From Candidatus Dojkabacteria bacterium (GTDB taxonomy: Bacteria; Patescibacteriota; Dojkabacteria; SC72; JAFGCJ01), in contig JAQVGB010000007.1 of the NCBI GenBank assembly GCA_028696915.1, positions 1-21,840 of the forward strand: 21,840 nucleotides of DNA, written 5' to 3'. This document shows positions 8,910-21,840 of this stretch, one piece after another. The number at the start of each line of letters is the position of its first letter. Position 1 is the first letter of the stretch. Both the position numbers and the translations under genes were made by a program. Under the pieces are notes generated by a model. The model was not told the origin of the DNA, did no database searches, and worked only from the letters and a program-made list of their open reading frames with translations.

Positions 8910-8917
8910 CATCGATG

Positions 8918-9002
8918 TGCCGAGGAGAGGACTCGAACCTCCACAGGATATGCTCCCACATGGTCCTAAGCCATGCGCGTCTGCCAGTTCCGCCACCTCG
9001 GC
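8918..9002 (-). tRNA. tRNA-Leu (anticodon UAG), long variable arm, CCA not encoded
   Basis: Reverse complement GCCGAGGTGGCGGAACTGGCAGACGCGCATGGCTTAGGACCATGTGGGAGCATATCCTGTGGAGGTTCGAGTCCTCTCCTCGGCA. The acceptor is 7 bp, the anticodon loop is CTTAGGA, and the extra arm is class II. Confidence 0.9.
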
Positions 9003-9048
9003 AGGGTAAAATCCTCAAATTTCAGGAGGTGAACGTAATGCAGGAAGA

Positions 9049-10176
9049 TTATATCACCATTTCGCTGTCGTTGATGACCCGTACGACCGTTTTCTTCCGT
9101 TCCAGTTTGGTAACCGGCTGTTCATCTTCGGGCTTGGGAAGCCGGTAGTACGTTGATCGTCCCCCGTGATGTACTGAAACAAGCTTTTTCCGGACAAGTT
9201 CATTGAGGTCACGGTAGGCAGTCATGGTTGAAACACCCGTCATCCCCACATACTCGCGGCGGGAGATCCTGGGGTGATACTGGAGGTGCCGTACGAGCCT
9301 CTGTTGGCGTGGGTTGAGCACGAGCAGCTGTTCTCTTTGCAGGTGAACTTTCTTTTCTGCCGCTCGCACGACATCGTTTTTTAATGAAACCATATCGGAC
9401 GAAATTCCGTTGAGGTAGGTCTCGATCCATCCGGTCACATCCGCAGTTGTCCAGTCGATTGATGACAGCGCGTCAATAAATTGTTCTTTATGATTGAGGA
9501 AACTTCCAGCGACCGGGAAAAGGCCCTTGAGCGAGAGTCGCGAGCGCTCCATGAGCAGTTCCGTAGAAGCAAGCATGGTGATGAAATTGCCGGACATGAA
9601 CGGATACCACCGATACAACTCCGATATGACACAGGCACACTTGATTGCGGGGTGCACCTGATGCCGCTTTTCCCCGAACCAATGGAGCACATCCGTGAAG
9701 TACCGCTGAGGATCTATCGAAAGCCTCGGCAGTTCCCTGTCTTTCAGAAGAGGGTCCGCCGGATCGCTTACGGTGTCCATAATCGACCTGAACCGCCCGC
9801 TTTCCCACGATTCGACGATCGTGTTGAGAAGAAGCTTGTTTAAATGAAGAAGCAGTGATGCTGAGAGCGATAGGTACGGGTCATTGCTTGATGCATACAT
9901 GAAATCACTGGTGCTCCGGTAGTTTGCAAGAATGACTGATTTTGAACCGGGCAGTGGAATATCTCTTCCCGAGGCAAGGTTTGAGGCATCAGGCTGAGAG
10001 AGTGGAATATTCAGCTGTGTGGCAAGCGCTGAAATGTTGCTTGATGCCTGCTGGTGTAGAAGCGATTTTTGCACTTTCGCCGAAAGTGGCGTGCTTCGGA
10101 TATCGTGGATTGCAAGCTCGAGACGGATCAAGTGCGAAACGATTGTGTTCGTCAGAGAGAATGTTGGAACGTACAT
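9049..10176 (-). CDS. Fic/DOC-fold protein with degenerate catalytic motif and a C-terminal winged-HTH
   Basis: At the position of the Fic signature HPFxxGNGRxxR the protein reads YPFMSGNFITML (nt 9571-9606). The C-terminus LNPRQQRLVRHLQYHPRISRREYVGMTGVSTMTAYRDLNELVRKKLV resembles the wHTH found on long Fic proteins. Confidence 0.6.
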   Translation of the reverse strand: MYVPTFSLTNTIVSHLIRLELAIHDIRSTPLSAKVQKSLLHQQASSNISALATQLNIPLSQPDASNLASGRDIPLPGSKSVILANYRSTSDFMYASSNDPYLSLSASLLLHLNKLLLNTIVESWESGRFRSIMDTVSDPADPLLKDRELPRLSIDPQRYFTDVLHWFGEKRHQVHPAIKCACVISELYRWYPFMSGNFITMLASTELLMERSRLSLKGLFPVAGSFLNHKEQFIDALSSIDWTTADVTGWIETYLNGISSDMVSLKNDVVRAAEKKVHLQREQLLVLNPRQQRLVRHLQYHPRISRREYVGMTGVSTMTAYRDLNELVRKKLVSVHHGGRSTYYRLPKPEDEQPVTKLERKKTVVRVINDSEMVI

Positions 10177-10221
10177 TTTTGAGCTCTCAAGTAGAATCTG
10201 GTCCTGGAGCAGTCAGTACTA

Positions 10222-10294
10222 AGCTGGCGGTGAGGATCGAACTCACGACCTACGCTTTACGAAAGCGTCGCTCTACCAACTGAGCTACGCCAGC
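10222..10294 (-). tRNA. tRNA-Thr (anticodon CGU), CCA not encoded
   Basis: Reverse complement GCTGGCGTAGCTCAGTTGGTAGAGCGACGCTTTCGTAAAGCGTAGGTCGTGAGTTCGATCCTCACCGCCAGCT. The anticodon loop is TTCGTAA. Confidence 0.9.
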
Positions 10295-10494
10295 TTTTTG
10301 TGACCACAAGCCTGGTTATAGTTAGGGCATCGTGGTCAAATGAAGGGCCGATTCGTATCGGATTTATATCACAGACGAGATGGCATGTCCACGGGGATAA
10401 GGTAGCAGAACGCCCTCGCAGATGCTTCGCATCTACTCGTTCTTCACGGTCATCCAGTCCAGCGTCCTCTCCTCACGGTGTGAGGAAATGCCGC

Positions 10495-10570
<76 letters not shown>

Positions 10571-10599
10571 ATCGGTCCTGAGGCCAAGAAATCAACTTT

Positions 10600-11430
10600 C
10601 TAAAGGATTTTCTTCTTGTCCAGATTATAATAGATTCCGCCCAGCATCGCACTATGAACGAGAAATCCTGCGGTCTCAACCGTTGGAGAAACGATAGGGC
10701 CACAGCAACACAGCACGACCGTCAATATGCCGAAGAGTACATTAATGACCAGCATGATGACAGCAACCCCAAGAAACTGCGGCCATGCATGCGTGATGAC
10801 CGTCATGATCGTGGACGGTGACATAAGCTTCCCGAGATCCCGATATTTCAGGTACACATACATGAGTGCCGGAATGACCAGGATGGCAACAGCAAACATA
10901 ACCACGCTGAGAATGATCATGAGAAAGACAAACGCGGCGATCAGGAGCGCCGTTATCCATGTGGAATCAATAGAAGACAGCAGAACGATCGGAAGAGCGG
11001 CGGAGATCATGGTGATCAGAACGAGCGGGCCAATCAACAGAAACTGTGCTCCAATGTATACAAGTCCGGTTGTCAACGTTTTTCCTAGGTTTGAATGCTC
11101 CGGAAGGACATCCAGATCATCCTTCTTGACCGCAGAAGTCCTGATTGAGTCAGCGGTCTCCAAAAAGTAGCCTCTGACATACAGCATCACCGGAAGCAAA
11201 ATGAGAGAGCTCAATGTCGGCATAGCGATCGCAAGAAGCGGGAATGCGTCATTGGAGAATCCCCGAGGAAAGGCAAAACTGGAAAACCTGAAGATGTCGG
11301 TGGAGGTTAGTGCCGCATTGATCCCCAGGGAGAAGATTGTATTAAAGAAAAAAATAGCCCAAATAACCCCGGCTTTCGGCAGAAGTCTGCGGTCGTTGAA
11401 GACGCGCGGTATAAAATTGAGAAATTCCAT
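10600..11430 (-). CDS. Hypothetical polytopic integral membrane protein
   Basis: 276 aa with at least six long hydrophobic segments. No catalytic motif is recognisable. The antisense ORFs in the track (10727-11170, 10742-10960) are shadows. Confidence 0.6.
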   Translation of the reverse strand: MEFLNFIPRVFNDRRLLPKAGVIWAIFFFNTIFSLGINAALTSTDIFRFSSFAFPRGFSNDAFPLLAIAMPTLSSLILLPVMLYVRGYFLETADSIRTSAVKKDDLDVLPEHSNLGKTLTTGLVYIGAQFLLIGPLVLITMISAALPIVLLSSIDSTWITALLIAAFVFLMIILSVVMFAVAILVIPALMYVYLKYRDLGKLMSPSTIMTVITHAWPQFLGVAVIMLVINVLFGILTVVLCCCGPIVSPTVETAGFLVHSAMLGGIYYNLDKKKIL

Positions 11431-11437
11431 GGTTTCG

Positions 11438-11446
11438 ATTGTAGCA
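11438..11446 (-). promoter_or_regulatory. Extended -10 element (TGCTACAAT on the minus strand) 7 nt upstream of the membrane-protein ATG
   Basis: The reverse complement of 11431-11446 reads TGCTACAATCGAAACC and is followed by the ATG at 11430. There is no Shine-Dalgarno. Confidence 0.35.
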
Positions 11447-11457
11447 TACTTGTTTGA

Positions 11458-11486
11458 TTGACTGTACCCGGATTATTAGATATAGT
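11458..11486 (+). promoter_or_regulatory. Candidate sigma70 promoter for tRNA-Asp
   Basis: TTGACT (11458-11463), 17 nt spacer, TATAGT (11481-11486), located 53 nt upstream of the tRNA 5' end. Confidence 0.4.
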
Positions 11487-11539
11487 TATGCCGCTAACCT
11501 CTAGTTGAGGCGATCATTAAAACATAATGAAGAATTTGT

Positions 11540-11613
11540 GGGGCGGTAGTTCAGTTGGCTAGAACATCGCACTGTCACTGCGAAGGTCGCGGGTTCGAGC
11601 CCCGTCCGCCCCG
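11540..11613 (+). tRNA. tRNA-Asp (anticodon GUC), CCA not encoded (followed by TAG)
   Basis: 74 nt cloverleaf. The acceptor is GGGGCGG/CCGCCCC with discriminator G, the D arm GTTC-AGTTGGCTA-GAAC, the anticodon arm TCGCA-CTGTCAC-TGCGA, and the T arm GCGGG-TTCGAGC-CCCGT. Confidence 0.92.
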
Positions 11614-11730
11614 TAGGCAATCAAAAATCGTCCGAAAGGGCGATTTTTTGTTGCCTCGCTGGAAGGACGAAGGGCGAGAAGCAAGGTCCCACGAAACGAA
11701 GTGTAGTGGGGAGCCCCGTCCGCCCCGCCA
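11612..11730 (+). repeat. Junction module alpha, copy 1 (119 nt), ending in the 13-mer GTCCGCCCCGCCA (11718-11730)
   Basis: 116/119 identical to 14821-14939. It begins right at the discriminator of tRNA-Asp. The last 20 nt, GAGCCCCGTCCGCCCCGCCA, repeat the tRNA T-loop/acceptor 3' strand and add CCA. Confidence 0.95.
11623..11649 (+). terminator. Intrinsic-terminator-like hairpin downstream of tRNA-Asp
   Basis: AAAAATCGTCC-GAAA-GGGCGATTTTT has an 11 bp stem with one G-U pair, a GNRA-type loop and a T tract. It is nested in an outer inverted repeat AGGCAA (11615-11620) / TTGCCT (11652-11657). Confidence 0.65.
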
Positions 11731-11893
11731 TTTTCAACATGTTCCAACAAGACCCGTCCACTATCTCTAGGAATCCCTTGGTTGCTTCGTAAAATCGCCC
11801 CTAAATTTAAGTATTTCAATTTCACATCCTGGTGGATGAAAATATCCATATTTTAACCAGTTTTTACTTCCCCACGGTTCGAAGATAGAATCC
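11731..11893 (+). repeat. Cassette left arm L, copy 1 (upstream of the ABC gene)
   Basis: Colinear with 13858-14024 in four blocks. The blocks are a 36-nt block TTTTCAACATGTTCCAACAAGACCCGTCCACTATCT (34/36), CCTGGTGGATGAAAA (15/15), CAGTTTTTA (9/9) and CGGTTCGAAGA (11/11). They sit at matching distances from the CCA (97/99 nt and 144/145 nt). Confidence 0.85.
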
Positions 11894-11936
11894 TTTTGTG
11901 ATATACTTTTCAAATAATTACAATAGATATAACGAC

Positions 11937-13715
11937 ATGCTTAAAGAAATAATAAAAGGATTAAAGTACGGACTTAATACACACAAATTCCTTATTACCT
12001 CGCAATGGATTCTTAACACCATTAACCAAACAACACCGCTATTTTTTGCAATCATCTGGGCAAAACTAATAGATACAGCAATAGATGGGATTCAGAATAA
12101 CAACCTCACCTTTTCCTTAATGATAGTTCCCTTCATCCTGTATGGCGTCATAGAAATAGCTAGATCTCTTACAGGGAAATTAGATGATGCATTACAAACA
12201 CTGGCCTATGACAAATTAGAGTTAAAAGTTCATACAGATGTAGTTAAGAAATATTCATCACTTGATATACAAAGCCTAGAAGATCCAGAAGTTAACAGAC
12301 TATTTCAAGTTATAAGGGAGTCATATGAATGGAGAATTAGACATTTAATATTTACATTCGGTAAAGCACTAAGGGCATTTGTAATACTTGGTATTGGTTC
12401 ATTTATACTTTTCAAAATCTCTCCTCTTGTTATGCTCATTATAATTATATCCTCTATACCATCCGTATTAGGAAAAATGAAGTTTGGCTCTATTGATTGG
12501 GGAATATGGCATGCAGATGCAGATAAGTTTAGAAAATTTAACCTAACTAAAGACTTTTTACTTAACAAAGATAATCTTCTGGAGGCAAATATAAACAATA
12601 TATCTCCACATCTCGTTGAAGTAATAAAAGAAATACTGAATTCATATCATCAGAAGAGAAAGCCAGTAATTAAAAAGCGTTTTTTTGTTCTAATTTTAAC
12701 AGACTTAATAGGAATAGTAGGTTCAATATATTCCGTATATCTACTGATTACTCTAGCTTTAACTGGCTCTATCTCAATTGGAAGTTTAATCTTAGGATCA
12801 TCTATCTTCCTTTCATTTTCTGGTGGACTAGGATCTTTCTTGTATGAAATTACAGAATTATATGATTCAGGATTATTCATGAGAGATTTCAACTCTTTTA
12901 TGAATCTTAAGCCTAAAATATCTAAAGGGAATATTCTGTTAGAAAAACTTGATACTCCTCCTACTATAGAGTTTAAGAACGTATCCTTTACATACCCCAA
13001 TACAGACAAAATTGTATTAAAGGATATAGACCTTGTTATTAAACCTGGTATGAAAGTAGCATTAGTAGGTGAAAATGGAGTAGGAAAAACAACCTTAATT
13101 AAACTACTCGCTCGATTCTATACACTGAACAATGGAATGATCGAAATTAATGGTCAAAATCTCGCAGATATTGATACAGAAAGCTGGGAACAGAACTTAG
13201 GTTTACTCACACAACATTTTAATACATACCCTGCATTTAGTGTTGAGGAGAATATATATTTTGGAGATGTATCCAAGGAGAGGAGAAGTAAGAGTATAGA
13301 AAGTGCTGCTGATAAAGCAAATGTTACAAGCTTTATTAACAAATATAAAAACAAATTTAAACAGATTCTTTCTATACAATTTAAGGATGGAATAGATCCA
13401 TCATGGGGACAATGGCAAAGATTAGGAATAGCTAGAACATTATATAGGGATGCACCCGTAGTAATATTTGATGAACCCACATCCTCTATAGATGCTCAAG
13501 CAGAGTATGAGATATTTGAAAACATTAATAGTTCTACTAAAGATAAAACCGTTATATATGTATCACATAGGTATTCTACAGTAAGGAATGCTGACTTAAT
13601 ATGCGTTTTAAAGGATGGAAGAATTGTTGAGTCAGGAAACCATCAAGATTTAATGAGTATTAATGGTGAGTATGCTAAGAACTTTAAATTACAAGCATCG
13701 GGGTATTCAGATTGA
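11937..13715 (+). CDS. ABC exporter, fused permease-ATPase (type I half-transporter) with an atypical signature motif
   Basis: The N-terminal ~330 aa carry about 6 hydrophobic segments. The NBD has Walker A GENGVGKTT, a Q-loop region, Walker B VVIFDEPTSSID and H-loop YVSHR. The signature reads PSWGQWQR instead of LSGGQRQR. ATG 11937 is preferred; the track start at GTG 11898 is possible. The gene is very AT-rich. Confidence 0.85.
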   Translation: MLKEIIKGLKYGLNTHKFLITSQWILNTINQTTPLFFAIIWAKLIDTAIDGIQNNNLTFSLMIVPFILYGVIEIARSLTGKLDDALQTLAYDKLELKVHTDVVKKYSSLDIQSLEDPEVNRLFQVIRESYEWRIRHLIFTFGKALRAFVILGIGSFILFKISPLVMLIIIISSIPSVLGKMKFGSIDWGIWHADADKFRKFNLTKDFLLNKDNLLEANINNISPHLVEVIKEILNSYHQKRKPVIKKRFFVLILTDLIGIVGSIYSVYLLITLALTGSISIGSLILGSSIFLSFSGGLGSFLYEITELYDSGLFMRDFNSFMNLKPKISKGNILLEKLDTPPTIEFKNVSFTYPNTDKIVLKDIDLVIKPGMKVALVGENGVGKTTLIKLLARFYTLNNGMIEINGQNLADIDTESWEQNLGLLTQHFNTYPAFSVEENIYFGDVSKERRSKSIESAADKANVTSFINKYKNKFKQILSIQFKDGIDPSWGQWQRLGIARTLYRDAPVVIFDEPTSSIDAQAEYEIFENINSSTKDKTVIYVSHRYSTVRNADLICVLKDGRIVESGNHQDLMSINGEYAKNFKLQASGYSD

Positions 13716-13759
13716 GATACTTTCCCCTTTTTTATACTGTCTTATTTGTCTCATTTTGT

Positions 13760-13781
13760 GGTCCAGACTCGTATGTCCCGT
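13760..13781 (+). repeat. Degenerate tRNA 3'-end-like cassette right end, copy 1
   Basis: GGTCCAGACTCGTATGTCCCGT matches GGTTCCAGACGTGTATGTCCCGT at 14801-14823. Both align loosely (about 13-15 of 22) to the tRNA-Asp T-loop/acceptor GGTTCGAGCCCCGTCCGCCCCG. Confidence 0.7.
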
Positions 13782-13857
13782 TGTCCACGAATGTAATGAG
13801 TGGTAACAACGGGCGATCCCGCAATCGCGAAGCGAGCTGCGGTGGTCCGCCCCGCCA
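13777..13857 (+). repeat. Junction module beta, copy 1: hairpin, 35-nt conserved body and 13-mer (13845-13857)
   Basis: The hairpin is CCCGTTGT-CCAC...GTGG-ta-ACAACGGG (13777-13813). AACAACGGGCGATCCCGCAATCGCGAAGCGAGCTG (13805-13839) is identical to 20847-20881. The module ends in GTCCGCCCCGCCA. Confidence 0.9.
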
Positions 13858-14024
13858 TTTTCAATATGTTCCAACAAGACCCGTGCACTATCTTTTAAAA
13901 CCCTTATGGGAATTGAGTTATTAAGACTCTAAAAAGTGAAAGTTTTAAAAGTAAGGCCTGGTGGATGAAAAAGATCAAAAAAAAGCAGTTTTTAAGAGCT
14001 CTCGGTTCGAAGAAAAACTAATCC
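13858..14024 (+). repeat. Cassette left arm L, copy 2 (here abutting the 3' end of the minus-strand S51 peptidase gene)
   Basis: See 11731-11893: the same four colinear blocks at the same spacing from the CCA. Confidence 0.85.
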
Positions 14025-14059
14025 TATATACACAAACAAAAAATCATTACGGATAAGTA

Positions 14060-14701
14060 TTACCTCAATTTTGTTTCACTTATAATAACTTCCCCATCTC
14101 TTAAAGGCTTATAAGGTATGCCTTCATGCTTAAAGTACTTTATCGCCTCATTAATCATTTCTGATTCAGGATGATCAGAGTCAAAATGTGGTGCTATTGA
14201 ATAATCTATTAAACCAATTCCCTCCCAAACAATCTCTTTTCCATAGACTTCGGTTACTTTCTCTGGTTCGTCAGCTAATTCAATACCCTTTAAAGAAGGT
14301 GCTAATACACATGCTCCTGCAGAAAAACCTGCGTAAAGGAATTCTGTTTTATCACTCCTGTTTTTATATTCAATTAAAATCTTGTCGAGACCACTTTCTG
14401 CCATTGCACTACGAAGTAAAAAAGCATTTCCACCAATAACCCATAAACCTCCAAATTCGTCCAATTTTGATCTTAATCCTTCCATATCCCCAAAGTAATC
14501 TCTTAGATCTAAGAGCTCCGGTTCAAATCCAAGATCTTTTAATCCATCAATTTGTTTCTGTTCAGAAGCCAATCTTCTTTCGGTGTCATTACTAAAATCT
14601 AGAGCATTAGCTATTAGTGCAATTCTTTTATTTGAAGAAGCTAACTGAGCCAATTTATTAGGATCATCTCCAAATTTGTATGAAGACAAATATAATTTCA
14701 T
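14060..14701 (-). CDS. Peptidase family S51 (dipeptidase E-like)
   Basis: VIGGNAFLL (compare GGGNTF), nucleophile elbow YAGFSAGACV (compare GWSAGA) and IAPHFDSD (compare NPHF). Length is 213 aa. A strong Shine-Dalgarno AGGAGA lies 6 nt before the ATG. Confidence 0.8.
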   Translation of the reverse strand: MKLYLSSYKFGDDPNKLAQLASSNKRIALIANALDFSNDTERRLASEQKQIDGLKDLGFEPELLDLRDYFGDMEGLRSKLDEFGGLWVIGGNAFLLRSAMAESGLDKILIEYKNRSDKTEFLYAGFSAGACVLAPSLKGIELADEPEKVTEVYGKEIVWEGIGLIDYSIAPHFDSDHPESEMINEAIKYFKHEGIPYKPLRDGEVIISETKLR

Positions 14702-14800
14702 AAGAATTCTCCTATTTAAATTACTAACTTTATCTTACTAAAAAATTCTCGAGAAAACCATGTAAATCCATCCTACCTAATTCATACCTTTTCCACTCTT

Positions 14801-14823
14801 GGTTCCAGACGTGTATGTCCCGT
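14801..14823 (+). repeat. Degenerate tRNA 3'-end-like cassette right end, copy 2
   Basis: GGTTCCAGACGTGTATGTCCCGT runs directly into alpha copy 2, exactly as the genuine tRNA-Asp 3' end runs into alpha copy 1. Confidence 0.7.
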
Positions 14824-14939
14824 AGGCAATCAAAAATCGTCCGAAAGGGCGATTTTTTGTTGCCTCGCTGGAAGGACGAAGGGCGAGAAGCACGGTCCCA
14901 CGAAACGAAGTGTAGTGGAAAGCCCCGTCCGCCCCGCCA
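14821..14939 (+). repeat. Junction module alpha, copy 2 (119 nt), ending in the 13-mer (14927-14939)
   Basis: 116/119 identical to 11612-11730. The three differences are A/C at 14893 and GG/AA at 14919-14920. Confidence 0.95.
14832..14858 (+). terminator. Second copy of the terminator-like hairpin
   Basis: Identical to 11623-11649 (AAAAATCGTCCGAAAGGGCGATTTTT plus T tract). Confidence 0.55.
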
Positions 14940-15233
14940 GACGGAACGGTGCTTATAGGTAAACAGTAAATAATGTCAGGACAATGAAAGTTGGCACCTC
15001 CTCAGTTCGAACCTCACACTATGGGCAAATAAGGCGTCCGGAACAGATTTCATAGGATAATCCATTTTCCTTATTATTAAAGCAAAAGTAGGGGTAATTA
15101 TGCGTTCGAACCTAACAATCTAAAAATATGAAAAAATGTAGGTTGCATGTGATAACCAAGAATATCAAGAGAACCTGGATGTATTTGCTAAAACTTTGAA
15201 CATAATTGCGGTGAATATTGCGAAATTGAGCCC

Positions 15234-16433
15234 TTAGATGGGCTCTGCAACCGTTTCTTCCAGTACACGTTCGAGATCTTTTGTCTGAGCCTCTATTGAT
15301 TTACTTGCCCAGTCTCGTTCCTGATACATTTTGAGCCCCATCCATGGTTTACCAAGTTCGTCAAGGCAGAGTGCAAGTAGTGCCAGTCGTTCTTCTCGAG
15401 GTGTAGGGGTACTTAATCTTCCTCCCCCACGAATTGCCTTCATTTGATATGTATACGCTGTGTAATCAATATGTAATTGCATAAGAAACTCAAACGTTTT
15501 TTCGTCAATAATTTTATATTCCATCGCTCTTCTCCATAACGCGACAGAGATAGCTTCCTGTTCCATTTGATGACTAGTGACATTATAAAGACCCTGAATT
15601 TCACGAGTTTTATCTAAAAACTCTGAATCTGGTTCAATATCAAATGGATATAACGGTATCCCTTTTTGATCAATACCGTACAATACGTTTCTATGTTGTT
15701 TTTCCAGTTGCGCTATTGTTTCTTTGTATTGGGTTTCTCTTTTTTGAAAATCAGTATCTGACTCACCTAGCTTTCTTACTGGTTCTTTTGGGCGATTGAC
15801 ATCAAGATATCGGTCCCAGAGTTTCCCTGCATCGTGGGTGCCAGCCCAAACAATAAAAGCGCGGCGCTCTTCTTCGGAAATATGCAAAGATTCAAACAAG
15901 TGCCGAGAAAACCGGAATATATTACGACGCACTGCCAGCATGTCCAGTTCTGATTGGGTTAATTGTTCCCATCCGCTTTGATCCAGAATTCTTGAAATAG
16001 TCTCTGATAAGTCGTCCACTGTCGCAACGTATGCCTCACTGTGTCCTTCAATGGGTTGAAAGTAGTGGTATGCTGATGGCGGTATTTCATTTCCAGAAAG
16101 AGCTTGAAAAACAGAAAGAAGTGCTCGCATATGGTCTGTCACATCGTATCCATGAAATGGACACACCTGATCAACCAGTAATCCTCCATCTGGCCTTTTT
16201 CTAAGAGAAACCGTAGATGTAACTAATGCACGACGATCGTCTGTTGCTTCAGATCCAACAAGATCAGGATTAGTTTCAATTAGATTAGTAGCATCTACAG
16301 CAAGTCTCGACCAGACAGTTGGTTGATCAAGCTGCCCCATAAGATACCCAATTCCATCACATATCGACTGAGTGCGCGCTTCAATCGCTTGGTTCATAAT
16401 TTCATTACCTTCACCATCTGGAGCATTTGCCAT
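15234..16433 (-). CDS. HD-domain metal-dependent phosphohydrolase-like protein (399 aa from ATG 16433)
   Basis: FSRHLFESLHISEEERRAFIVWAGTHDAGK (nt 15822-15902) fits the HD-domain pattern H...(~20 aa)...LHDxGK. The rest of the protein is unassignable by eye. The internal Met (MANAPDG) is preferred as start because it removes the overlap with the divergent kinase gene. Confidence 0.5.
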   Translation of the reverse strand: MANAPDGEGNEIMNQAIEARTQSICDGIGYLMGQLDQPTVWSRLAVDATNLIETNPDLVGSEATDDRRALVTSTVSLRKRPDGGLLVDQVCPFHGYDVTDHMRALLSVFQALSGNEIPPSAYHYFQPIEGHSEAYVATVDDLSETISRILDQSGWEQLTQSELDMLAVRRNIFRFSRHLFESLHISEEERRAFIVWAGTHDAGKLWDRYLDVNRPKEPVRKLGESDTDFQKRETQYKETIAQLEKQHRNVLYGIDQKGIPLYPFDIEPDSEFLDKTREIQGLYNVTSHQMEQEAISVALWRRAMEYKIIDEKTFEFLMQLHIDYTAYTYQMKAIRGGGRLSTPTPREERLALLALCLDELGKPWMGLKMYQERDWASKSIEAQTKDLERVLEETVAEPI

Positions 16434-16446
16434 ATGAGACAATTTC

Positions 16447-16474
16447 TTGTAAAAACTGTGATACCTGCTATTAT
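16447..16474 (+). promoter_or_regulatory. Candidate promoter in the 74-nt divergent intergenic region, oriented toward the kinase gene
   Basis: TTGTAA (16447-16452), 16 nt spacer, TATTAT (16469-16474). Confidence 0.3.
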
Positions 16475-16507
16475 AGTAATCACATAAGTAAAAAACAAGC
16501 ATGTATT

Positions 16508-17458
16508 ATGAATAATCTTTCCTTTGGTGATGTCGTCCAGAAGCTCCAGGAGGATTACGCGGATCTTCAGAAATACGACCTAACGGTACAAAAGCAATTT
16601 GTTTCAAAAACAGGACGTAAGTACAATACTTTTCTTGTTGATGCACCTGATTCCCCATATGGTATATTTGTAGCCAAAAGCTTTTGGCATGAGAACCAGA
16701 ACCTTGATGATGAAGTTCGCATTATGAATTTTCTCTCTGATAAAGAGGTATTTGTGCCAAAGCTGTTGTTTCCATACAAAGCAGGGAATACGTTTATTGT
16801 GATGGAATATATCAAAGGAACTGATGCTGCGGAATTGCTTCAAAATCCAGAACATGCACTAAATGCATTTAGAAGTATTGGTACATCCTTGAGTAAAGTA
16901 TATGAAGTGTCTGTCCCGGCTTTTAACAAATTCTGGGAAAACGATCCAACAGTATGGTCAGAGTATGTTCAGGAAAAGTTTGATGAACGGTTAACAAAAG
17001 CCATTGATAAAGATCTTTGGGATCAAATTCGGTCGATTTATCAAAAAGGTACAGAAGTTATAGCGGAAGATGCAAAGTCTGGATCAGTTTTGATACACAG
17101 AGATATTTATGCTGACAACTTTATTATTGAAGAGTCGACCGGGCGGGCAATTTTAATTGACTTCGCTATGGCTCGCGGAGGCAGGCCCTTTTATGATCTT
17201 GCCAAGTTTTACATCATCGATCTAGCGAGACATTCTGAAGGTCAAAATGCTTTTCTGGAGGGACTGAATATTGCTGAAAGAAGTGAAGCAAACTTTTATA
17301 TGCTCCGATCCTATATCCTCATTGAGCTCCTTGGCATGATTAACTTTTATATGAGTATTAATCAAACTGAGCCCTTAAAACACGCACAAACATGTCTGAG
17401 AGAATTAGTAACAGAAAAGGGAAGTTTCCATGAGTTAGTGAAAGCATATGTAACGTAA
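16508..17458 (+). CDS. APH/choline-kinase-family small-molecule kinase (aminoglycoside phosphotransferase fold)
   Basis: Catalytic loop LIHRDIYADNFII (HxDxxxxN), metal-binding ILIDFAMA (the DFG equivalent), and an N-lobe with VAKSF containing a Lys. ATG 16508 (MNNLSFGD) is preferred over the track's TTG at 16427. Confidence 0.75.
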   Translation: MNNLSFGDVVQKLQEDYADLQKYDLTVQKQFVSKTGRKYNTFLVDAPDSPYGIFVAKSFWHENQNLDDEVRIMNFLSDKEVFVPKLLFPYKAGNTFIVMEYIKGTDAAELLQNPEHALNAFRSIGTSLSKVYEVSVPAFNKFWENDPTVWSEYVQEKFDERLTKAIDKDLWDQIRSIYQKGTEVIAEDAKSGSVLIHRDIYADNFIIEESTGRAILIDFAMARGGRPFYDLAKFYIIDLARHSEGQNAFLEGLNIAERSEANFYMLRSYILIELLGMINFYMSINQTEPLKHAQTCLRELVTEKGSFHELVKAYVT

Positions 17459-17566
17459 ACTAACCTTGTCTTATAAAGGATATTTATATCCGGACCTCAA
17501 ACGACAACTCCGGTACCTGCACTTTAATTCTCGCATCCCGCATCACCTCCATTAGAGTTTTGTTCT

Positions 17567-17579
17567 GTCCGCCCCGCCA
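17567..17579 (+). repeat. Solo copy of the tRNA-Asp 3'-terminus 13-mer GTCCGCCCCGCCA
   Basis: Exact 13/13 match in the same orientation, located in the 165-nt gap between the kinase gene and ORF374. It has no alpha or beta body upstream. Confidence 0.9.
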
Positions 17580-17623
17580 GCCTCTTTTCGGTCATCTGTT
17601 AAAAGCCAACAAACATTGATATA

Positions 17624-18748
17624 TTGATAGAGTTAAATTCGGCTTTGCAGTTGATGTCTGGAGAATCACCAGTGCATGATGATGTACTAGCCCCCGCTGG
17701 TGTTGCGGATGTAGCAGATCCGTTACCCCAAGATCCCGATTTTCAGCGTCTTCATGCACAGTATCTAGAGTATCTACAAAACGAGCCTGTTACCAAGGTA
17801 AAGCTTCCGCTATACCACGGAACTGGCTCATATGCACTGAGACGGATCTTGCATGATGGATTTGTCCCACGCTCTTCCAGTGCGTCATTGACGGGAGATA
17901 GTGCTTCAAGCCCCTGGACACCGGAAGAGGGATCCGCGTTCACGTCATTTGCACCGGGTACTTCTGAAGGAGCCGTCTTTGCACGGGGGTATGCATACCA
18001 ATCAAGTAGAGAGTGGGGATTAAGCTACACGGCAGATGAAGCTCTAGGTGCTTCGTTTCTTGAGCGAGTGCAAACCAAATTCTTTCCAGATATGAATGCG
18101 GCAGTGGAAGCTGAGCACAAGCGTGTTATTGGCCTAGGTAACAATGATCCTGAAGATGAAGTTCGTGAGGCTATTAAAATGGAGATGGACATTCAGAGGG
18201 AGCGGATGCAAACCCCTGGAGCTTTCGTATTCAGTCCCGATTCTGCTCGAGAGATGATAGGTGAATTACAGAGGCTTCAAAATGGAGAGATTGAAGATAC
18301 TGTTGCTGCAGAGAGACTGTTAAGGGCAAACAACGTCCTCTGGCGACGAGGGGCTAGCGTTGTTAGACAGACCTTGCAAACGCTATCTGATCCGCAGAGT
18401 TGGCTTACAAAACGAATAGAGGAACTTAAGGCTTCATATGCCCAGATGATTATAGCGTATGAGAATTTGTCAGATGATGAACGAAATGAGCTGGAACACC
18501 AATTTCCCTGCATGGTCTTGGTAGAAGGTGATGGTATGAAGCTCGGGAATAAGGCAACGGCCTTTGTCCCCGAAGTTCAGGCGCTAGAAAGAACCGAACC
18601 GCAGAGGGTAAGAGAGATTTCGGTGCCAGAGTCAAAAGTGGAAACGGTACAGAAGTGGATCGAGGCTGAAGGACTAAAAGGTGTTATAGTTACCCCTCTG
18701 GAGTTTTCAGAAGTTAAGGATGTTCTTGATTCTGTCGAAAAGGAATAG
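17624..18748 (+). CDS. Hypothetical protein with a PARP/ADP-ribosyltransferase-like N-terminal NAD-binding motif (tentative)
   Basis: LPLYHGTGSYALRRILHDGFVP (nt 17804-17869) resembles the ART/PARP/Tpt1 motif hhHG(S/T)x7-8ILxxG(F/L). A possible second-strand motif is EGAVFARGYAYQSS (compare GxGxYFA..S.S). The central region is helical and charged. The start is TTG 17624 or ATG 17654. Confidence 0.35.
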   Translation: MIELNSALQLMSGESPVHDDVLAPAGVADVADPLPQDPDFQRLHAQYLEYLQNEPVTKVKLPLYHGTGSYALRRILHDGFVPRSSSASLTGDSASSPWTPEEGSAFTSFAPGTSEGAVFARGYAYQSSREWGLSYTADEALGASFLERVQTKFFPDMNAAVEAEHKRVIGLGNNDPEDEVREAIKMEMDIQRERMQTPGAFVFSPDSAREMIGELQRLQNGEIEDTVAAERLLRANNVLWRRGASVVRQTLQTLSDPQSWLTKRIEELKASYAQMIIAYENLSDDERNELEHQFPCMVLVEGDGMKLGNKATAFVPEVQALERTEPQRVREISVPESKVETVQKWIEAEGLKGVIVTPLEFSEVKDVLDSVEKE

Positions 18749-18804
18749 AGGTCGATGAAGGTTTGAGTAGCCATAGATCTCCAAACTCGTCCCATGCCTT
18801 CCGC

Positions 18805-18822
18805 CAGCAGCGCTTTCTGCTG
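18805..18822 (+). other. Perfect 6-bp hairpin downstream of ORF374
   Basis: CAGCAG-cgcttt-CTGCTG has no T tract. It immediately follows a degenerate 13-mer-like string, GTCCCATGCCTTCCGCCAG (18789-18807). Confidence 0.35.
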
Positions 18823-18848
18823 ACTCCTCCATACGCTATACTTGCTTC

Positions 18849-19295
18849 ATGTATCAGATTCCGGAGGACAAGGGATTCCTCATAGCAGTAAAAGCACTAA
18901 TAATCAACTCGTCAGGTGAAGTTCTTCTCCTTAAAGTGAATAGTGGCCTGCGTGATTCAGAGAGATGGGATCTACCCGGCGGTTTAATGGAATATGACGA
19001 TACGGTTGAGAGCAGATTACAGAAAGAAGTGATTGAGGAAACCGGCATTAAAATCAAAGATCCGAAGCTAATTGCTGTTTCTGAAACGATATTTGAAGAT
19101 TTCGTTCTTGACGAAAATAACGTAAAAGACATGAAAGTTGTAGTTATTGGTTTTGAATTGCATATAGGCGCAACAAAGGAGACTATCAGATTATCAGAGG
19201 AACATGCAGGTTATGCTTGGTATAGAATGGAAGATTTGAATACCATTGAGCTCTCCAAACCTTCCAAGGCAATCATCACAAAGATTCCTAAGTAA
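18849..19295 (+). CDS. Nudix hydrolase
   Basis: Nudix box G-LMEYD-D-TVESRLQ-KEVIEETGI (nt 18978-19049) fits Gx5Ex7REUxEExGU with conservative E-to-D and R-to-K changes. Length is 148 aa. TATACT lies 6 nt before the ATG. Confidence 0.8.
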   Translation: MYQIPEDKGFLIAVKALIINSSGEVLLLKVNSGLRDSERWDLPGGLMEYDDTVESRLQKEVIEETGIKIKDPKLIAVSETIFEDFVLDENNVKDMKVVVIGFELHIGATKETIRLSEEHAGYAWYRMEDLNTIELSKPSKAIITKIPK

Positions 19296-19301
19296 CATCG
19301 T

Positions 19302-19329
19302 CTCGGTTCGATACTGTGCCACGCGGCCA
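19302..19329 (+). other. Fragment resembling a different tRNA 3' end (T-loop to CCA)
   Basis: CTCGG-TTCGATA-CTGTG-CCACGCG-G-CCA has exactly the T-loop-to-CCA spacing of a tRNA. It is followed by GTAGGCAA, the same octamer that follows the tRNA-Asp 3' end. There is no 5' half, and the T stem pairs at only 4 of 5 positions. Confidence 0.5.
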
Positions 19330-19331
19330 GT

Positions 19332-19359
19332 AGGCAAAAGCACGCAGCTTTTGTATCCT
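19332..19359 (+). other. Hairpin analogous to the alpha-module hairpin
   Basis: AGG-CAAAAGC-acgca-GCTTTTG-tat-CCT then CG. It has the same flanks (GTAGGCAA...TTTTGT..CCTCG) as 11613-11659 but a different stem and loop sequence. Confidence 0.5.
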
Positions 19360-19381
19360 CGAGCAATGTGAAGTCAATATC

Positions 19382-20710
19382 TCATAGGTTAACCGTCACG
19401 TCATCCGGTTCAATATCTCCACACATTGCCAAATACCAGGAATTGCTTCCAAAATACTTTTGCGCAGCCCGTTGTGTCGCCTCTGGAGTACAACGTAATA
19501 TAGCCTCTGAGTATGCTTTAATTCCGAAGGGGCCTCCTACACCTCTTTCCCAGTCTGAGTATTGTTCAACCCAACTCCTGGAATCTTGAAGGCGCATTCT
19601 TAATGATTTAATCTTCCTCGTCTGCCCGAATACTAACTCTTCTTGCGAAAGGCCACTGGTAACGACGCGTCTGATTTCTCCGGCAAGAACATCAAGCACC
19701 TCCTGCACATTTTGCCTTGAAGTCGAAGTTTTAATAAGAAATCGCCCTGAGTCGCTATTTCTTTGAGCACCAGCACTTGCCTCATAGGTCAGTCCTCTTT
19801 CATATCTTAGTAAGCGTTTTAACGAAGATGCCCTTCCTCCTCCGAGCGATTCTGCAATCATTTCTAACGCCAGGTTGTCTGCCTCGCTACTAGTTTGAAA
19901 TCTAAATCCGAAAAGAATATGAACTTGTTCAAGACCAGGATATCTTTCCACAAGAATCTGCCCTCCGATAGGTAGAGGCAATTCTTCGGCGGCTTTCAGA
20001 GGAACGCTTGCTGGGACCAATAAACTCTGCTCTGCGTGATCTTTTAGATCGTGAACCTGTGTTCCACCGCAGGCTACAAATAACAGTCGCCCAGATGTTA
20101 CGACTTCTTTGTAGAAACGAATCAAGTCATCTCTTGAAATTGACCTAATTGATTCCGGGGTTCCAAGAATCGATCTTCCAAGATCTGTCCCTCCAAAGAA
20201 AAGCCGTGGATACAACTCCATGAGCATTTTTTCTGGACTTGATACTTTTGCTCCGAGTTCTCGTAAAATTGCCCCTCTTTCCATCTCCACTGTTCGAGGA
20301 TCAAACAGTGGATCGAGTAACATTTCGTGCATCAAGTCGACACATACTCCAAGATCGTCAGGATCCGCTACCGTGGAATTGATACTCAACCGTTCCCACC
20401 CGGTTGTTGCGCCAATTTCTCCTCCATAGCGTTCAATGTATGCAGCTAGTCTGTCTTTAGTAGGAAAACGAGGTGTTCCCGCGAGGAGCATGTGCTCAAG
20501 AAAATGTGCTGTTCCTTCTTGTCCCGGTGGATCAAAACGTGCCCCACCAATGGAAACAGCGCGAAGATGAATAGGTGCCCGAGGTCGCTCCAAAACAACC
20601 AGTTTTGAACCATTTGATAGGAACGTTTCCTCCCGTCTCGTTCCCAGGTCTTCAGCAGATAAAGAATTGTGGGTCGGATCGGTATCAACCTCATTGGGTT
20701 TGTCAATCAT
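19382..20710 (-). CDS. M16-family (pitrilysin/insulinase-like) zinc metallopeptidase
   Basis: Inverted zincin motif GTAHFLEHMLL (HxxEH) near the N-terminus, a downstream Glu region (ERGAILRE), and a two-domain length of 442 aa. Confidence 0.85.
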   Translation of the reverse strand: MIDKPNEVDTDPTHNSLSAEDLGTRREETFLSNGSKLVVLERPRAPIHLRAVSIGGARFDPPGQEGTAHFLEHMLLAGTPRFPTKDRLAAYIERYGGEIGATTGWERLSINSTVADPDDLGVCVDLMHEMLLDPLFDPRTVEMERGAILRELGAKVSSPEKMLMELYPRLFFGGTDLGRSILGTPESIRSISRDDLIRFYKEVVTSGRLLFVACGGTQVHDLKDHAEQSLLVPASVPLKAAEELPLPIGGQILVERYPGLEQVHILFGFRFQTSSEADNLALEMIAESLGGGRASSLKRLLRYERGLTYEASAGAQRNSDSGRFLIKTSTSRQNVQEVLDVLAGEIRRVVTSGLSQEELVFGQTRKIKSLRMRLQDSRSWVEQYSDWERGVGGPFGIKAYSEAILRCTPEATQRAAQKYFGSNSWYLAMCGDIEPDDVTVNL

Positions 20711-20717
20711 AAGAATA

Positions 20718-20746
20718 AGTATATGTTAGGTCCTGATTTTTGTCAT
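20718..20746 (-). promoter_or_regulatory. Candidate promoter abutting the M16 start codon
   Basis: On the minus strand: ATGACA (20741-20746), 17 nt spacer, TATACT (20718-20723), then 7 nt to the ATG at 20710. No Shine-Dalgarno. Confidence 0.4.
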
Positions 20747-20818
20747 CCGGCACAGAGAGTTGTACCACTCTCAATCTGAACTTAAATGAAATCACCATAG
20801 CACCAAACTCTTCCCACC

Positions 20819-20898
20819 CCCGTTGTCTGTGGCCAAAGCGATCAGCAACAACGGGCGATCCCGCAATCGCGAAGCGAGCTGAGCGGTCCGCCCCGCCA
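20819..20898 (+). repeat. Junction module beta, copy 2: hairpin, 35-nt body and 13-mer (20886-20898); distal boundary of the island
   Basis: The hairpin is CCCGTTGT-CTG...CAG-ca-ACAACGGG (20819-20855). Its outer 8 bp are the same as copy 1, and its inner pairs differ but still pair. The body 20847-20881 is 35/35 identical to 13805-13839. The module ends in GTCCGCCCCGCCA. Confidence 0.9.
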
Positions 20899-21033
20899 CA
20901 TTTGAATTCATAAATGAAACTATTCAACATCCCATTGCACAATGATGAAGGTAATCTAGTAAGTTGAGATCCCAAATCCATGCCCCGCCTCCCGGCTACA
21001 TGATCTCTCCGCTTTCCTGTACAATCATGCCCT

Positions 21034-21840
21034 ATGCCGTCATTCTGGACAAAGTTACCGCGTCCGTTCTTTGCACTCGCTCCCATGCGGGGCATCACCA
21101 ACGGTGTGTTTCGTACGATCATATCTCAATACGCTCCTCCCGATGTGATTTTCACGGAATTTGCGAATGTTGAGACACTATTCTCTCCCGGCAAGGACGC
21201 AGAAATGGTCAAATTGACACTATCTTCTGCTACATGCCCTGTGGTAGCACAGCTGTGGGGATCGAATCCTGAAAACTTCATGAAATCCGCGAGAATTCTC
21301 TCCCGGCAGGGGTTTAGCGGTATTGATATCAATATGGGCTGCTCAATTAACAAAATTCTGAAGAAAGACTCCTGCGGCGCACTGATTAAAAATCCCAGTC
21401 TCGCACGTGAAATTATCATTGCAACAAAGGAGGGAGCCGCGCCGCTACCGGTCAGTGTGAAAACACGGCTCGGACATGACGCTTTTTCTCCGCAGTGGAT
21501 CGAATGGCTTCTTCAATCGGATATCGATGCGCTGACGATACACGGAAGGACGGTCATTCAGGGCTTTAGGGGAAGTGCAGACTGGACGAGCATCGGCAAG
21601 GCGGTGGAAATCAAAAAACAGCTGGGGGTGTCGACCTGTATTATCGGAAATGGCGATGTGAGGTCCCGAGCACAGGGTGTTGAGCGTGCCCGTGACTATG
21701 AGGTGGACGGCATTATGATCGGCCGTGCGGAGTTGTCAGACCTCTTTGTCTTTTCTTCAAAATCCCGGAACGGTCATGCGCGGGATACACGTCTGCGTAT
21801 CCTCACCGACCACATTGACCGTGTTCTCAAGGAAAAAAGG
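21034..21840 (+). CDS. dus: tRNA-dihydrouridine synthase (N-terminal 269 codons; 3' end outside the window)
   Basis: The gene is not in the ORF track because it runs off the window. Frame 1 is open from 21004 with an ATG at 21034. The translation MPSFWTKLPRPFFALAPMRGITNGVFRTII...VAQLWGSNPENF...GIDINMGCS...VSVKTRLG...LTIHGRT...IIGNGDV...DGIMIGRA shows the Dus TIM-barrel motifs, including catalytic-Cys-region NMGC and FMN-binding K.R/HGR. Confidence 0.85.
   Translation, partial: MPSFWTKLPRPFFALAPMRGITNGVFRTIISQYAPPDVIFTEFANVETLFSPGKDAEMVKLTLSSATCPVVAQLWGSNPENFMKSARILSRQGFSGIDINMGCSINKILKKDSCGALIKNPSLAREIIIATKEGAAPLPVSVKTRLGHDAFSPQWIEWLLQSDIDALTIHGRTVIQGFRGSADWTSIGKAVEIKKQLGVSTCIIGNGDVRSRAQGVERARDYEVDGIMIGRAELSDLFVFSSKSRNGHARDTRLRILTDHIDRVLKEKR

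Follow-up and report, generated by a model that had tools for sequence, protein, structure and literature searches.

Integrons and CALINs (clusters of attC sites lacking integron integrases) hold co-oriented tandem arrays of short cassettes, mostly with one or two genes each and diverse accessory cargo; the cassettes carry no recombinase, in CALINs none is found nearby either, and the same cassette can sit in different arrays. In the composite islands of staphylococcal cassette chromosome (SCC) elements, tandem units in one orientation occupy the 3' end of the conserved rlmH gene (orfX) with short direct repeats between them, and some of these elements (ccr-less pseudo-SCC) rely on a large serine recombinase supplied in trans. 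Streptococci harbour sporadic cis-mobilizable elements (CIMEs), att-flanked deletion derivatives of integrative and conjugative elements or of integrative and mobilizable elements (IMEs), which can be mobilized by the recombinase of another element. On Acinetobacter plasmids, pdif modules lie between XerC/XerD sites of alternating orientation and are thought to be moved by a host-encoded enzyme. Here we analyse a 21.8-kb stretch of DNA, referred to as the window, which is one entire contig of a metagenome-assembled genome (MAG) of Candidatus Dojkabacteria. The 9.3 kb between its tRNA-Asp and dus genes are divided into units by short copies of the tRNA-Asp 3' end. We propose that this interval is probably a tandem array of integrative cassettes without recombinase, inserted serially, in one orientation and site-specifically at the 3' end of tRNA-Asp.

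In the way it appears to work, the array has its closest counterparts in integrons and CALINs and in those SCC composite islands that contain ccr-less elements. All the features of integrons and CALINs listed above recur here, but there is neither an attI/Pc platform nor an attC palindrome, a tRNA 3' end serves as capture site, and the conserved part of a cassette is split into a 22-nt tRNA mimic at its end and a module of about 175 nt at its start. With SCC islands the array shares tandem, co-oriented accumulation at the 3' end of a conserved gene, short direct repeats of that end and recombinase-less units, and a large serine recombinase is the only recombinase class found near an array here. 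It differs from them in its anchor (tRNA-Asp or tRNA-Ser, not rlmH), in the size of its units (about 1.4 kb versus 20-60 kb), in its conserved 175-nt module and in its host, a member of the candidate phyla radiation (CPR). Like CIMEs, the units have att-type flanks, lack integrase and transfer genes and stand in tandem at a tRNA 3' end, but they form a large family of ~1-kb cassettes with conserved ends of their own. Like pdif modules, they are small gene modules between recombination sites and have no recombinase of their own, but these sites are direct, tRNA-like and chromosomal. DDE transposons and Tn7-like elements have terminal inverted repeats and duplicate their target; here the two ends of a cassette (CCATTTTCAAC... 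and ...GTATGTCCCG) are not related by inversion, and nothing beyond the shared core is duplicated.

A tycheposon encodes an integrase and a replication module of its own; these elements use att sites of ~40 nt and leave remnants with fragmented integrases (bioRxiv 10.1101/2020.12.28.424599). A tRNA island as defined by Islander has a displaced 3' tRNA fragment at its far end, a regenerated tRNA and an integrase within (PMC4383910). The array resembles both in that integration would take place at a tRNA 3' end, with older elements pushed distally and partial tRNA copies as boundaries; as with tycheposons, adaptive cargo lies in hypervariable islands of streamlined genomes. Five displaced copies of the tRNA 3' end lie beside an intact tRNA-Asp, as expected of an Islander-type island, but no integrase lies within the island in the window. 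The hallmarks of tycheposons, a tyrosine or serine integrase and a primase/helicase replication module, are absent from the window as well. In the window the tRNA identity is 10-17 nt, and only CCG(CCA) for the delta ends described below, compared with the ~40-nt att. The preliminary description of this DNA had set the array apart from tycheposon remnants; the units are complete, uniform and integrase-free, they have conserved ends, and six-frame searches of the 221 array loci detected no integrase fragments.

Displaced tRNA ends divide a compositionally foreign interval

The 13-mer GTCCGCCCCGCCA occurs in five exact copies, all on the plus strand (starting at 11718, 13845, 14927, 17567 and 20886), where 0.22 copies are expected by chance; five copies were reached in none of 100 shuffles. 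All five had been noticed in the preliminary description. They are not dispersed within the window: the copies sit at unit boundaries and nowhere else in the window, in which no further copy is found even when two mismatches are allowed. Bases 1-10 are the last ten of tRNA-Asp, namely GT of the T stem, the 3' acceptor strand and the discriminator G. The whole 13-mer had been read as the tRNA end plus CCA, which is true of these ten bases and not of the CCA. The tRNA-Asp gene ends ...GGTTCGAGCCCCGTCCGCCCCG and is followed by TAGGCA and a strong terminator-like hairpin; since it encodes no CCA, the CCA of the 13-mers was not copied from the present gene. This 3' end is the anchor of the array and would serve as an attB-like site. 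The four units measure 2.1, 1.1, 2.6 and 3.3 kb, a range that corrects the ~1.0-2.6 kb first given.

The GC content is 0.505 in the core (gene GC at third codon positions, GC3, 0.54-0.63) and 0.33, 0.34, 0.40 and 0.46 in units 1 (ABC), 2 (S51), 3 and 4 respectively (gene GC3 0.24, 0.21, 0.30-0.34 and 0.36-0.41). The corresponding tetranucleotide distances, expressed as z against size-matched core windows, are 33.7, 15.4, 18.9 and 14.4. All four units are thus separable from the core, as had been claimed, and the dus flank is not (GC 0.50, gene GC3 0.55, z = 0.5). These data confirm that the 9.3 kb between tRNA-Asp and dus are compositionally foreign. Of the cargo assignments made earlier, the ABC exporter, S51 peptidase, APH-like kinase, Nudix and M16 peptidase genes were recovered with Pfam; those of an HD hydrolase (422 aa) and an ART-like protein (374 aa) were not, and neither protein matches Pfam, NCBIfam or PDB sequences.

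The junctions of the window are composite. Every unit ends in CCCG, and the next one starts with CCA (followed by the module gamma or by other sequence), with TAGGCA (the non-coding unit alpha) or with TTGTC (the non-coding unit beta). Alpha, whose end reads ...AGCCCC, lies 5' of the 13-mers at 11718 and 14927 and beta 5' of those at 13845 and 20886; gamma lies 3' of those at 11718 and 13845, and the module delta (...TCCAGACnnGTATGTCCCG) closes units 1 and 2. The stretch shared by the 50%-GC host and the incoming cassette at the first junction is CCCGCCA only. The alpha repeat extends over 139 nt (11592-11730 and 14801-14939, 93% identity), its hairpin folds at -50.6 kcal/mol (z = -3.8), and the same alpha flank follows the tRNA in two loci from other samples, L001 and L002 (L-numbers are our locus labels throughout). 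Because delta2-CCCG/TAGGCA, with the slash marking the boundary, is fused in the same register as ...CCCCG/TAGG at tRNA-Asp, alpha is taken as the native 3' flank of the CCA-less tRNA-Asp. The two copies of beta share 35 nt at 100% identity. In both (13777-13815 and 20819-20860) an 8-bp stem, CCCGTTGT/ACAACGGG, spans the unit boundary and uses the preceding CCCG; the loops of the two stems are wholly different in sequence.

A family of cassettes with conserved ends

The ABC and S51 units belong to a family of gamma/delta cassettes found mostly in Dojkabacteria, with at least 221 loci. A mobile cassette of this kind consists of CCA and gamma (~175-178 nt), one or two genes, and delta, a 22-nt tRNA-like end (...GGTTCCAGACnnnTATGTCCCG) resembling the T-arm and acceptor 3' strand of tRNA-Asp; the extended form, delta-long, measures ~50-70 nt. 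Scanning with the pattern CCAGACNNRTATGTCCCGCCA retrieved 91 stretches in species-representative genomes, nearly all of them MAGs labelled Dojkabacteria, 'Saccharibacteria' or Patescibacteria, and at least 120 stretches in metagenomes. Loci labelled 'Saccharibacteria' are 83-86% identical to Dojkabacteria-labelled loci upstream of tRNA-Asp and were therefore treated as the same lineage.

The 221 loci listed, to which all cassette statistics refer, contain 339 junctions. Arrays are strictly co-oriented: none of the 81 loci with at least two junctions has them on both strands. The 93 distinct complete cassettes range from 255 to 7,488 bp (median 1,435 bp) and contain one gene in 43 cases and two in 28. 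Methyltransferases, NUDIX and transglutaminase-like proteins, sortases, GNAT acetyltransferases, APH kinases and S51 and S66 peptidases are the commonest cargo.

That boundaries are copies of the tRNA-Asp 3' end, as previously described, is correct in this window; across the family the boundary is instead delta (...TATGTCCCG) joined to CCA-gamma. The host-specific 13-mers are the ends of the non-coding mini-units alpha and beta or of the older units 3 and 4. In the other contigs with the S51 cassette (see below), delta abuts CCA-gamma directly in the form ...TTTTTATACTGTCTTATTTGTCTCATT..GGTTCCAGACGTGTATGTCCCG/CCA/TTTTCAACATGTTCCAACAAGACCCGTCCACTATG...; L005 has six such junctions in 13.7 kb. 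The logo of 242 junctions reads GGTTCCAGACgTGTATGTCCCG/CCAtttTcaacatGTTCC, is conserved from about -25 to +37 and contains inverted half-sites, GTTssA(n)ACrTGT, at -22..-10 and +21..+10; the left one is occupied by the tRNA-Asp T-arm, GTTCGAGyCCCGT.

Alignment of 79 non-redundant gamma copies (242 copies were available for delta elsewhere) revealed three conserved blocks, GTTCC..AGACCCGTCCACTAT, GGCCTGGTGGATGAAAA and CGGTTCGAAGGTAGAA, and a candidate long-range helix pairing CGTCCACTA with TGGTGGATG (RNAalifold). In this helix 77.5% of cells are paired, compared with 76.0% after shuffling and 39-51% with slid partners, and 61 double-sided changes are counted against 43 expected. Gamma might act as a recombination arm, as an RNA or in both roles; Rfam recognises the tRNA alone in 11400-21100 and does not contain gamma. 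As to a viral or plasmid-like carrier, the patterns for beta, for the 13-mer plus gamma and for delta are absent from IMG/VR. Seven IMG/VR matches to a 17-nt gamma block were rejected as chance matches inside phage genes.

Some individual cassettes deserve mention. Among the most widespread, in at least 10 loci (including L083, L101, L041, L183, L199, L217 and L228), is one for a Fic/DOC protein of near-constant length (335-337 aa) with a C-terminal winged-helix domain. A large cassette (L005 10952-12169; L006; L007; L217 216-300 and 5915-7492) contains tRNA-Tyr and a class-I (Trp/Tyr-type) aminoacyl-tRNA synthetase, together with AlaX-like, dCTP-deaminase and methyltransferase genes, and thus has the appearance of a tRNA/synthetase pair that moves as a unit. 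MAGs labelled as other classes of Patescibacteria also have delta-like ends, or a tRNA-Ser-CCA with sequence resembling the start of gamma behind it (L091 at 7002-7022 and L093 at 2809-5381, Parcubacteria MAG; L030, Saccharimonadales MAG); the gamma/delta system may reach beyond Dojkabacteria.

Anchoring at tRNA genes and movement of cassettes

In four other loci (L015, L059, L060 and L099) a tRNA-Asp with encoded CCA is followed immediately by gamma and then by delta junctions, and in five more (L017, L032, L042, L045 and L102) tRNA-Asp-CCA directly precedes gamma variants, again with delta junctions after them; the same tRNA-CCA/gamma design is present at tRNA-Ser in L028. Upstream of the anchor, tRNA-Asp loci are syntenic with 65-86% identity, while downstream the matches are confined to gamma and delta, with different cassettes between them. 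In other loci, arrays terminate in delta-CCCG/ and then continue into flanks without CCA. Two tandem non-coding units of ~190 nt, each closed by a tRNA-Ser-like 3' end (...CCTGTCCCCTCCG, also written ...GCCTGGCTCCTGTCCCCTCCG), are found at 5930-6272 of L228, with CCA-gamma after the second; they share the design of the alpha and beta mini-units of the window.

Cassettes recur in different contexts. The identical S51 protein is encoded on at least 18 contigs from JGI, ENA and NCBI metagenomes with differing gene neighbourhoods. These contigs match the window at 97-98% nucleotide identity over 13851-14822 only, a span that starts within the 13-mer and covers cassette 2 as far as the last base of delta, and do not contain the 13-mer. 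The mobility proposed in the preliminary description is thereby supported, homology ending at the junctions. Cassette 1 recurs in L042, where it stands second in the array behind tRNA-Asp (85% identity over 2.1 kb). In total, 15 cassette families recur at 90% identity or more, and the upstream neighbour differs in 24 of the 67 informative pairs.

Breakpoints coincide with the junctions. L001, from another sample of the same species, carries the identical tRNA, alpha and 13-mer and then a different gamma variant, which places the breakpoint directly after the first 13-mer, where variation between strains had been anticipated. L034 and L105 have near-identical distal flanks and different last cassettes, and they switch at most 18 nt from CCCG/. 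The identity between partner sites can be as short as CCG (...TTCCG/TATT in L077 and ...CCCCG/TAGG in the window, against ...GTCCCG/CCA).

Independent Logan assemblies (L106 and L108) reproduce 11825-13754 and 14819-19791 of the window at 99.8-100% identity. L108, which is 100% identical, begins exactly at alpha2 and includes 13-mer copies 3 and 4, and the gene order of unit 3 is found in L107 and L108. The contig L217 (1-10565) has a 120-nt terminal overlap that closes a 10.4-kb circle of three complete cassettes, with CCCG ends at 133, 7621 and 8422 and without replication or recombination genes; it could be several cassettes excised together as a circle, but equally a tandem repeat or a closure caused by a repeat.

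Search for a recombinase

The window has no detectable gene for a recombinase, a transposase or a reverse transcriptase, in agreement with what had been noted before, and none is found in 220 of the 221 related array loci listed. The six-frame phmmer searches covered 236 loci (1.27 Mb) and used as seeds the tyrosine recombinases IntI1, XerC, XerD, lambda Int and Cre, the serine recombinases gamma-delta resolvase and Hin, the Y1-HUH transposase IS608 TnpA and a retron reverse transcriptase. Their one significant match is a large serine recombinase (LSR) in L228. In a Pfam census of 147 cassette proteins, neither recombinases nor transposases are among the 25 commonest cargo families. The proteins of 422 aa and 374 aa in units 3 and 4 are unlikely to be hidden recombinases, as they have no family or PDB match and their homologues do not recur in other arrays. 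Insertion 3' of ...CCG is compatible with targeting of the IS200/IS605 type (Y1-HUH); the IS608 TnpA seed found no match in the 1.27 Mb, and no conserved subterminal hairpin was seen at delta.

The L228 LSR lies upstream of the gamma/delta array, in a module with Replic_Relax and HTH_36 proteins (element at 2-4742). Its family has Resolvase, Recombinase and Zn_ribbon_recom domains and includes a clade of 50-98% identity that appears specific to Dojkabacteria, two members of which carry that label. The same six-gene module (three small or unfamiliar open reading frames (ORFs), an HTH_36 rep-like protein, Replic_Relax and the LSR) sits at tRNA-Ser in L236 (6457-11599), L237 (6527-11481) and L238 (2566-11545), and in L238 the element is bounded by a 19-nt direct repeat of the tRNA 3' end, AATCCCACCCTCTCCGCCA. 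Since these modules sit at tRNA-Ser, Dojkabacteria have serine integrases specific for tRNA 3' ends. The LSR element was rejected as a general neighbour of arrays, its module proteins being present in no other array locus, and that it acts on the cassettes is no more than a lead. The LSR ORF of L236 overlaps the entire tRNA-Ser gene in antisense with its final ~100 nt.

Proposed history of the locus

The native locus would have been organised as tRNA-Asp, alpha-GTCCGCCCCG, unit 3, unit 4, beta-GTCCGCCCCG and dus, and would already have held older foreign units with host-type tRNA-end boundaries. The two 33%-GC cassettes (ABC and S51) may have arrived recently from low-GC Dojkabacteria, entering at a CCG/ site. 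Strand exchange would take place within or beside the shared CCG, just 5' of CCA. Since delta mimics the tRNA end and the exchange would be at the shared CCG, any tRNA-like left half followed by CCG/ could receive a unit, and units could also be excised and re-inserted. Alpha and beta would act as non-coding mini-cassettes whose copies were duplicated into new junctions; composite boundaries with five identical 13-mers would be the result. If two CCCG/ sites recombined, they could yield a circle with alpha, or with a cassette plus alpha, and re-insertion of this circle would give tRNA, alpha1-O1, cassette 1, beta1-O2, cassette 2, alpha2-O3 (O1-O3 being 13-mer copies 1-3). A Campbell-type crossover inside alpha would lead to the identical arrangement. 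The alpha beside the tRNA in L001 carries alpha2-type single-nucleotide polymorphisms, which is consistent with alpha1 being the secondary copy.

The junction sequences suggest a protein-mediated crossover within or next to CCG. A serine-type two-base crossover or a single-strand mechanism would fit better than a tyrosine recombinase, which needs an identical overlap of 6-8 bp. The enzyme would be encoded elsewhere and act in trans, the leading candidate being an LSR of the type carried by the Dojkabacteria tRNA-Ser elements. A retro-element, with CCA added to an RNA 3' end, was also considered and rejected: units start with CCA, terminal cassettes abut CCA-less flanks, and no reverse transcriptase was found.

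Several observations weigh against serial site-specific insertion of recombinase-less cassettes. A full gamma opens only 48 of the 93 complete cassettes. Gamma and delta are both missing from units 3 and 4, whose mobility is deduced from their composition and flanking 13-mers alone. The LSR adjoins an array in one of the 221 loci listed, which is the sole co-occurrence; no recombinase is tied to the sites, and no gamma or delta lies within 10 kb of the LSR elements in L236-L238. Serine integrases normally pair attP with attB only, and repeated insertion into hybrid sites is atypical. The joints between cassette 1, beta1 and cassette 2 and between cassette 2 and alpha2 are covered by the MAG contig alone. 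Neither an excised circle nor an empty site (tRNA-alpha-13-mer-CCAGACGG, or delta(n)/gamma(n+2)) was directly observed; L217 is the sole self-closing contig, and its closure could reflect a repeat.

Alternative explanations

The array could be what is left of classical islands, that is, full-size integrase elements (tycheposon-, phage- or IME-like) that entered tRNA-Asp serially and were whittled by deletion to cargo and tRNA fragments. Displaced tRNA ends that mark integration one after another are classic hallmarks of tRNA islands, tycheposon remnants included, units 3 and 4 bear host-type 13-mers without conserved cassette ends, and LSR-bearing elements at tRNA genes do exist in Dojkabacteria. 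However, the six-frame searches gave no integrase fragments in the 221 listed loci, and cassettes retain both conserved ends and move intact between contexts at 97-98% identity. Random decay would not give uniform 1.4-kb units of one or two genes with precise ends. We consider this reading unlikely. Somewhat more doubtful still is an exchange without any dedicated recombinase, in which gamma and delta would be repeated functional intergenic elements (RNA or regulatory) and cassettes would be swapped by homologous recombination after DNA uptake. The resemblance between cassettes in gamma (~175 nt) and in delta-long (~50-70 nt) would suffice for these to act as homology arms, arrays lack a linked recombinase, gamma has its possible long-range helix, and alpha1 and alpha2 are 139-nt direct repeats around the new cassettes, as a Campbell-type crossover would leave. 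Such a process would need neither the tRNA mimicry of delta nor strict co-orientation, and it does not account for exact-register joints to non-homologous DNA (tRNA...CCG/CCA-gamma and delta-CCCG/native flank), in particular at the first junction with its seven shared bases.

Co-oriented, mostly one-gene cassettes of ~1 kb without a nearby integrase would also be expected of a true integron or CALIN, with attC-bounded cassettes captured by an IntI-type integrase, but we regard this as highly improbable. No IntI homologue was found in the window or the 236 loci with the IntI1 seed. The boundary is CCG/CCA and not G/TTRRRY; on inspection of the sequence, GTTRRRY was not seen at the boundary in the 242-site logo. 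The junction combines a tRNA mimic with a 175-nt module in place of an imperfect palindrome of R'', L'', L' and R' boxes. Cargo genes face both ways (116 minus, 69 plus), and the anchor is a tRNA rather than an attI beside intI: the genes upstream of tRNA-Asp encode GGDEF, TsaC and TsaD proteins elsewhere and a DUF4013 protein in the window, with no intI. A chimera of assembly or binning, in which shared repeats had linked cassettes of low-GC Dojkabacteria with a 50%-GC contig, would account for the strong GC contrast; the internal repeats of 49-139 nt and the two central junctions that independent contigs do not cover also point that way. It is nevertheless hardly credible. The Logan assemblies match both 11825-13754 and 14819-19791, L001 links the host tRNA, alpha and 13-mer to a gamma in another sample, and the low-GC cassettes have host-type beta1 between them and alpha2 after them. 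Host-to-cassette joins share merely 7-13 nt, and a k-mer chimera in particular is disfavoured because the host/cassette junction sequences have only 7 nt in common.

Significance

Serial integration at a tRNA 3' end is itself well known. A lineage-wide cassette system with conserved cassette ends and no nearby recombinase gene is apparently undescribed: no description of arrays of this kind in Patescibacteria, CPR or Dojkabacteria was found in the full-text literature, a search that left most subscription journals uncovered. In CPR bacteria, whose genomes are smaller than 1 Mb and for which there is no genetics in culture, mobile elements have seldom been recognised. A lineage-wide, tRNA-anchored array of ~1.4-kb cassettes would offer a concrete and testable account of how these bacteria exchange accessory genes. 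Identical cassettes pass between 33%-GC and 50%-GC lineages, and the cargo exchanged comprises peptidases, sortases, kinases, Nudix and Fic proteins, methyltransferases and ABC exporters.

More tentatively, and with somewhat less than even confidence, we suggest that Dojkabacteria, and probably other Patescibacteria too, might own a distinct integron-like gene-capture system, with a tRNA-mimic 3' end, the gamma 5' module, a stockpile at tRNA-Asp or tRNA-Ser and an unlinked recombinase, as their main route for accessory genes. Such a system could use a serine recombinase in a repeatable or unorthodox manner, or an enzyme guided or assisted by RNA or by a folded gamma strand. If true, it would be a second, independently evolved design for stockpiling cassettes beside integrons, and the main route of accessory-gene exchange in episymbionts with very small genomes. 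A short tRNA-mimic site with a recombinase acting in trans might also provide tools for site-specific integration.

Features of the window

Coordinates are collected in Table 1.

Table 1. Features of the array and its flanks, in window coordinates.
Feature	Position	Strand	Description
tRNA-Asp(GTC)	11539-11614 (ARAGORN); 11540-11613 (Rfam RF00005, 69.9 bits)	+	no encoded CCA
alpha1	11614-11717	+	104-nt non-coding unit: TAGGCAATC, terminator hairpin, ...GGGGAGCCCC; duplicate of alpha2
13-mer copy 1	11718-11730	+	alpha1 end GTCCGCCCCG joined to CCA opening cassette 1
cassette 1	11728-13780	+	2,053 nt: CCA + gamma1, ABC exporter gene, delta1
gamma1	11728-11905 (incl. CCA)	+	start of cassette 1
ABC exporter gene	11937-13715	+	Pfam ABC_tran 1.8e-29
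delta1	13729-13780	+	ends TATGTCCCG
beta1	13781-13854	+	74-nt non-coding mini-unit TTGTCC...AACAACGGGCGATCCCGCAATCGCGAAGCGAGCTG...GTCCGCCCCG, between delta1-CCCG and cassette 2 CCA
13-mer copy 2	13845-13857	+	formed by beta1 end
cassette 2	13855-14822	+	968 nt: CCA + gamma2, S51 peptidase gene, delta2
gamma2	13855-14032 (incl. CCA)	+	start of cassette 2
S51 peptidase gene	14060-14701	-	Pfam Peptidase_S51 4.5e-18
delta2	14798-14822	+	end of cassette 2
alpha2	14823-14926	+	native tRNA 3' flank, fused to delta2-CCCG; distal end of gamma/delta array
13-mer copy 3	14927-14939	+	alpha2 end joined to CCA opening unit 3
unit 3	14937-17576	+	2,640 nt; no gamma/delta; ends in host-type GTCCGCCCCG
422-aa protein gene	15234-16502	-	unit 3; family not found
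APH-type kinase gene	16508-17458	+	unit 3; Pfam APH 3.1e-18
13-mer copy 4	17567-17579	+	present in L108 too
unit 4	17577-20822	+	3,246 nt; ends ...CCCACCCCCG
374-aa protein gene	17624-18748	+	unit 4; family not found
Nudix gene	18849-19295	+	unit 4; Pfam NUDIX 1.3e-14
M16 peptidase gene	19382-20710	-	unit 4; Pfam Peptidase_M16/M16_C
beta2	20823-20895	+	73-nt non-coding mini-unit
13-mer copy 5	20886-20898	+	formed by beta2 end
distal chromosomal flank and dus	20896-21840	+	CCACATTTGAATTC...; dus from 21034, NCBIfam DusB 7.5e-43

Read as its longest ORF, from the TTG at 16427, the APH-type kinase gene would share 76 nt with the start of the divergent 422-aa gene. With the start at 16508 that was called independently in L107 (316 aa), the two genes no longer overlap. 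Exact-protein look-ups of the ABC exporter, 422-aa and Nudix proteins returned the same strain only, and that of the M16 peptidase no record. The DUF4013 protein flanking the tRNA has no relatives in genome, metagenome and viral collections, its sole homologue cluster being itself, and because of this the interval from tRNA-Asp to dus is not alignable across species.

The core genes of the window are divergent, as is usual for the CPR. Five tRNA genes (Glu, Leu, Thr, Gly and Asp) are clustered at 8477-11614; tRNA-Gly alone among them has an encoded CCA, and tRNA-Asp lies on the strand opposite to the other four. At 103-1935, an ileS fragment scores nearly equally with models of mupirocin-resistant MupA/MupB (eukaryote-like) IleRS and with the general ileS model.

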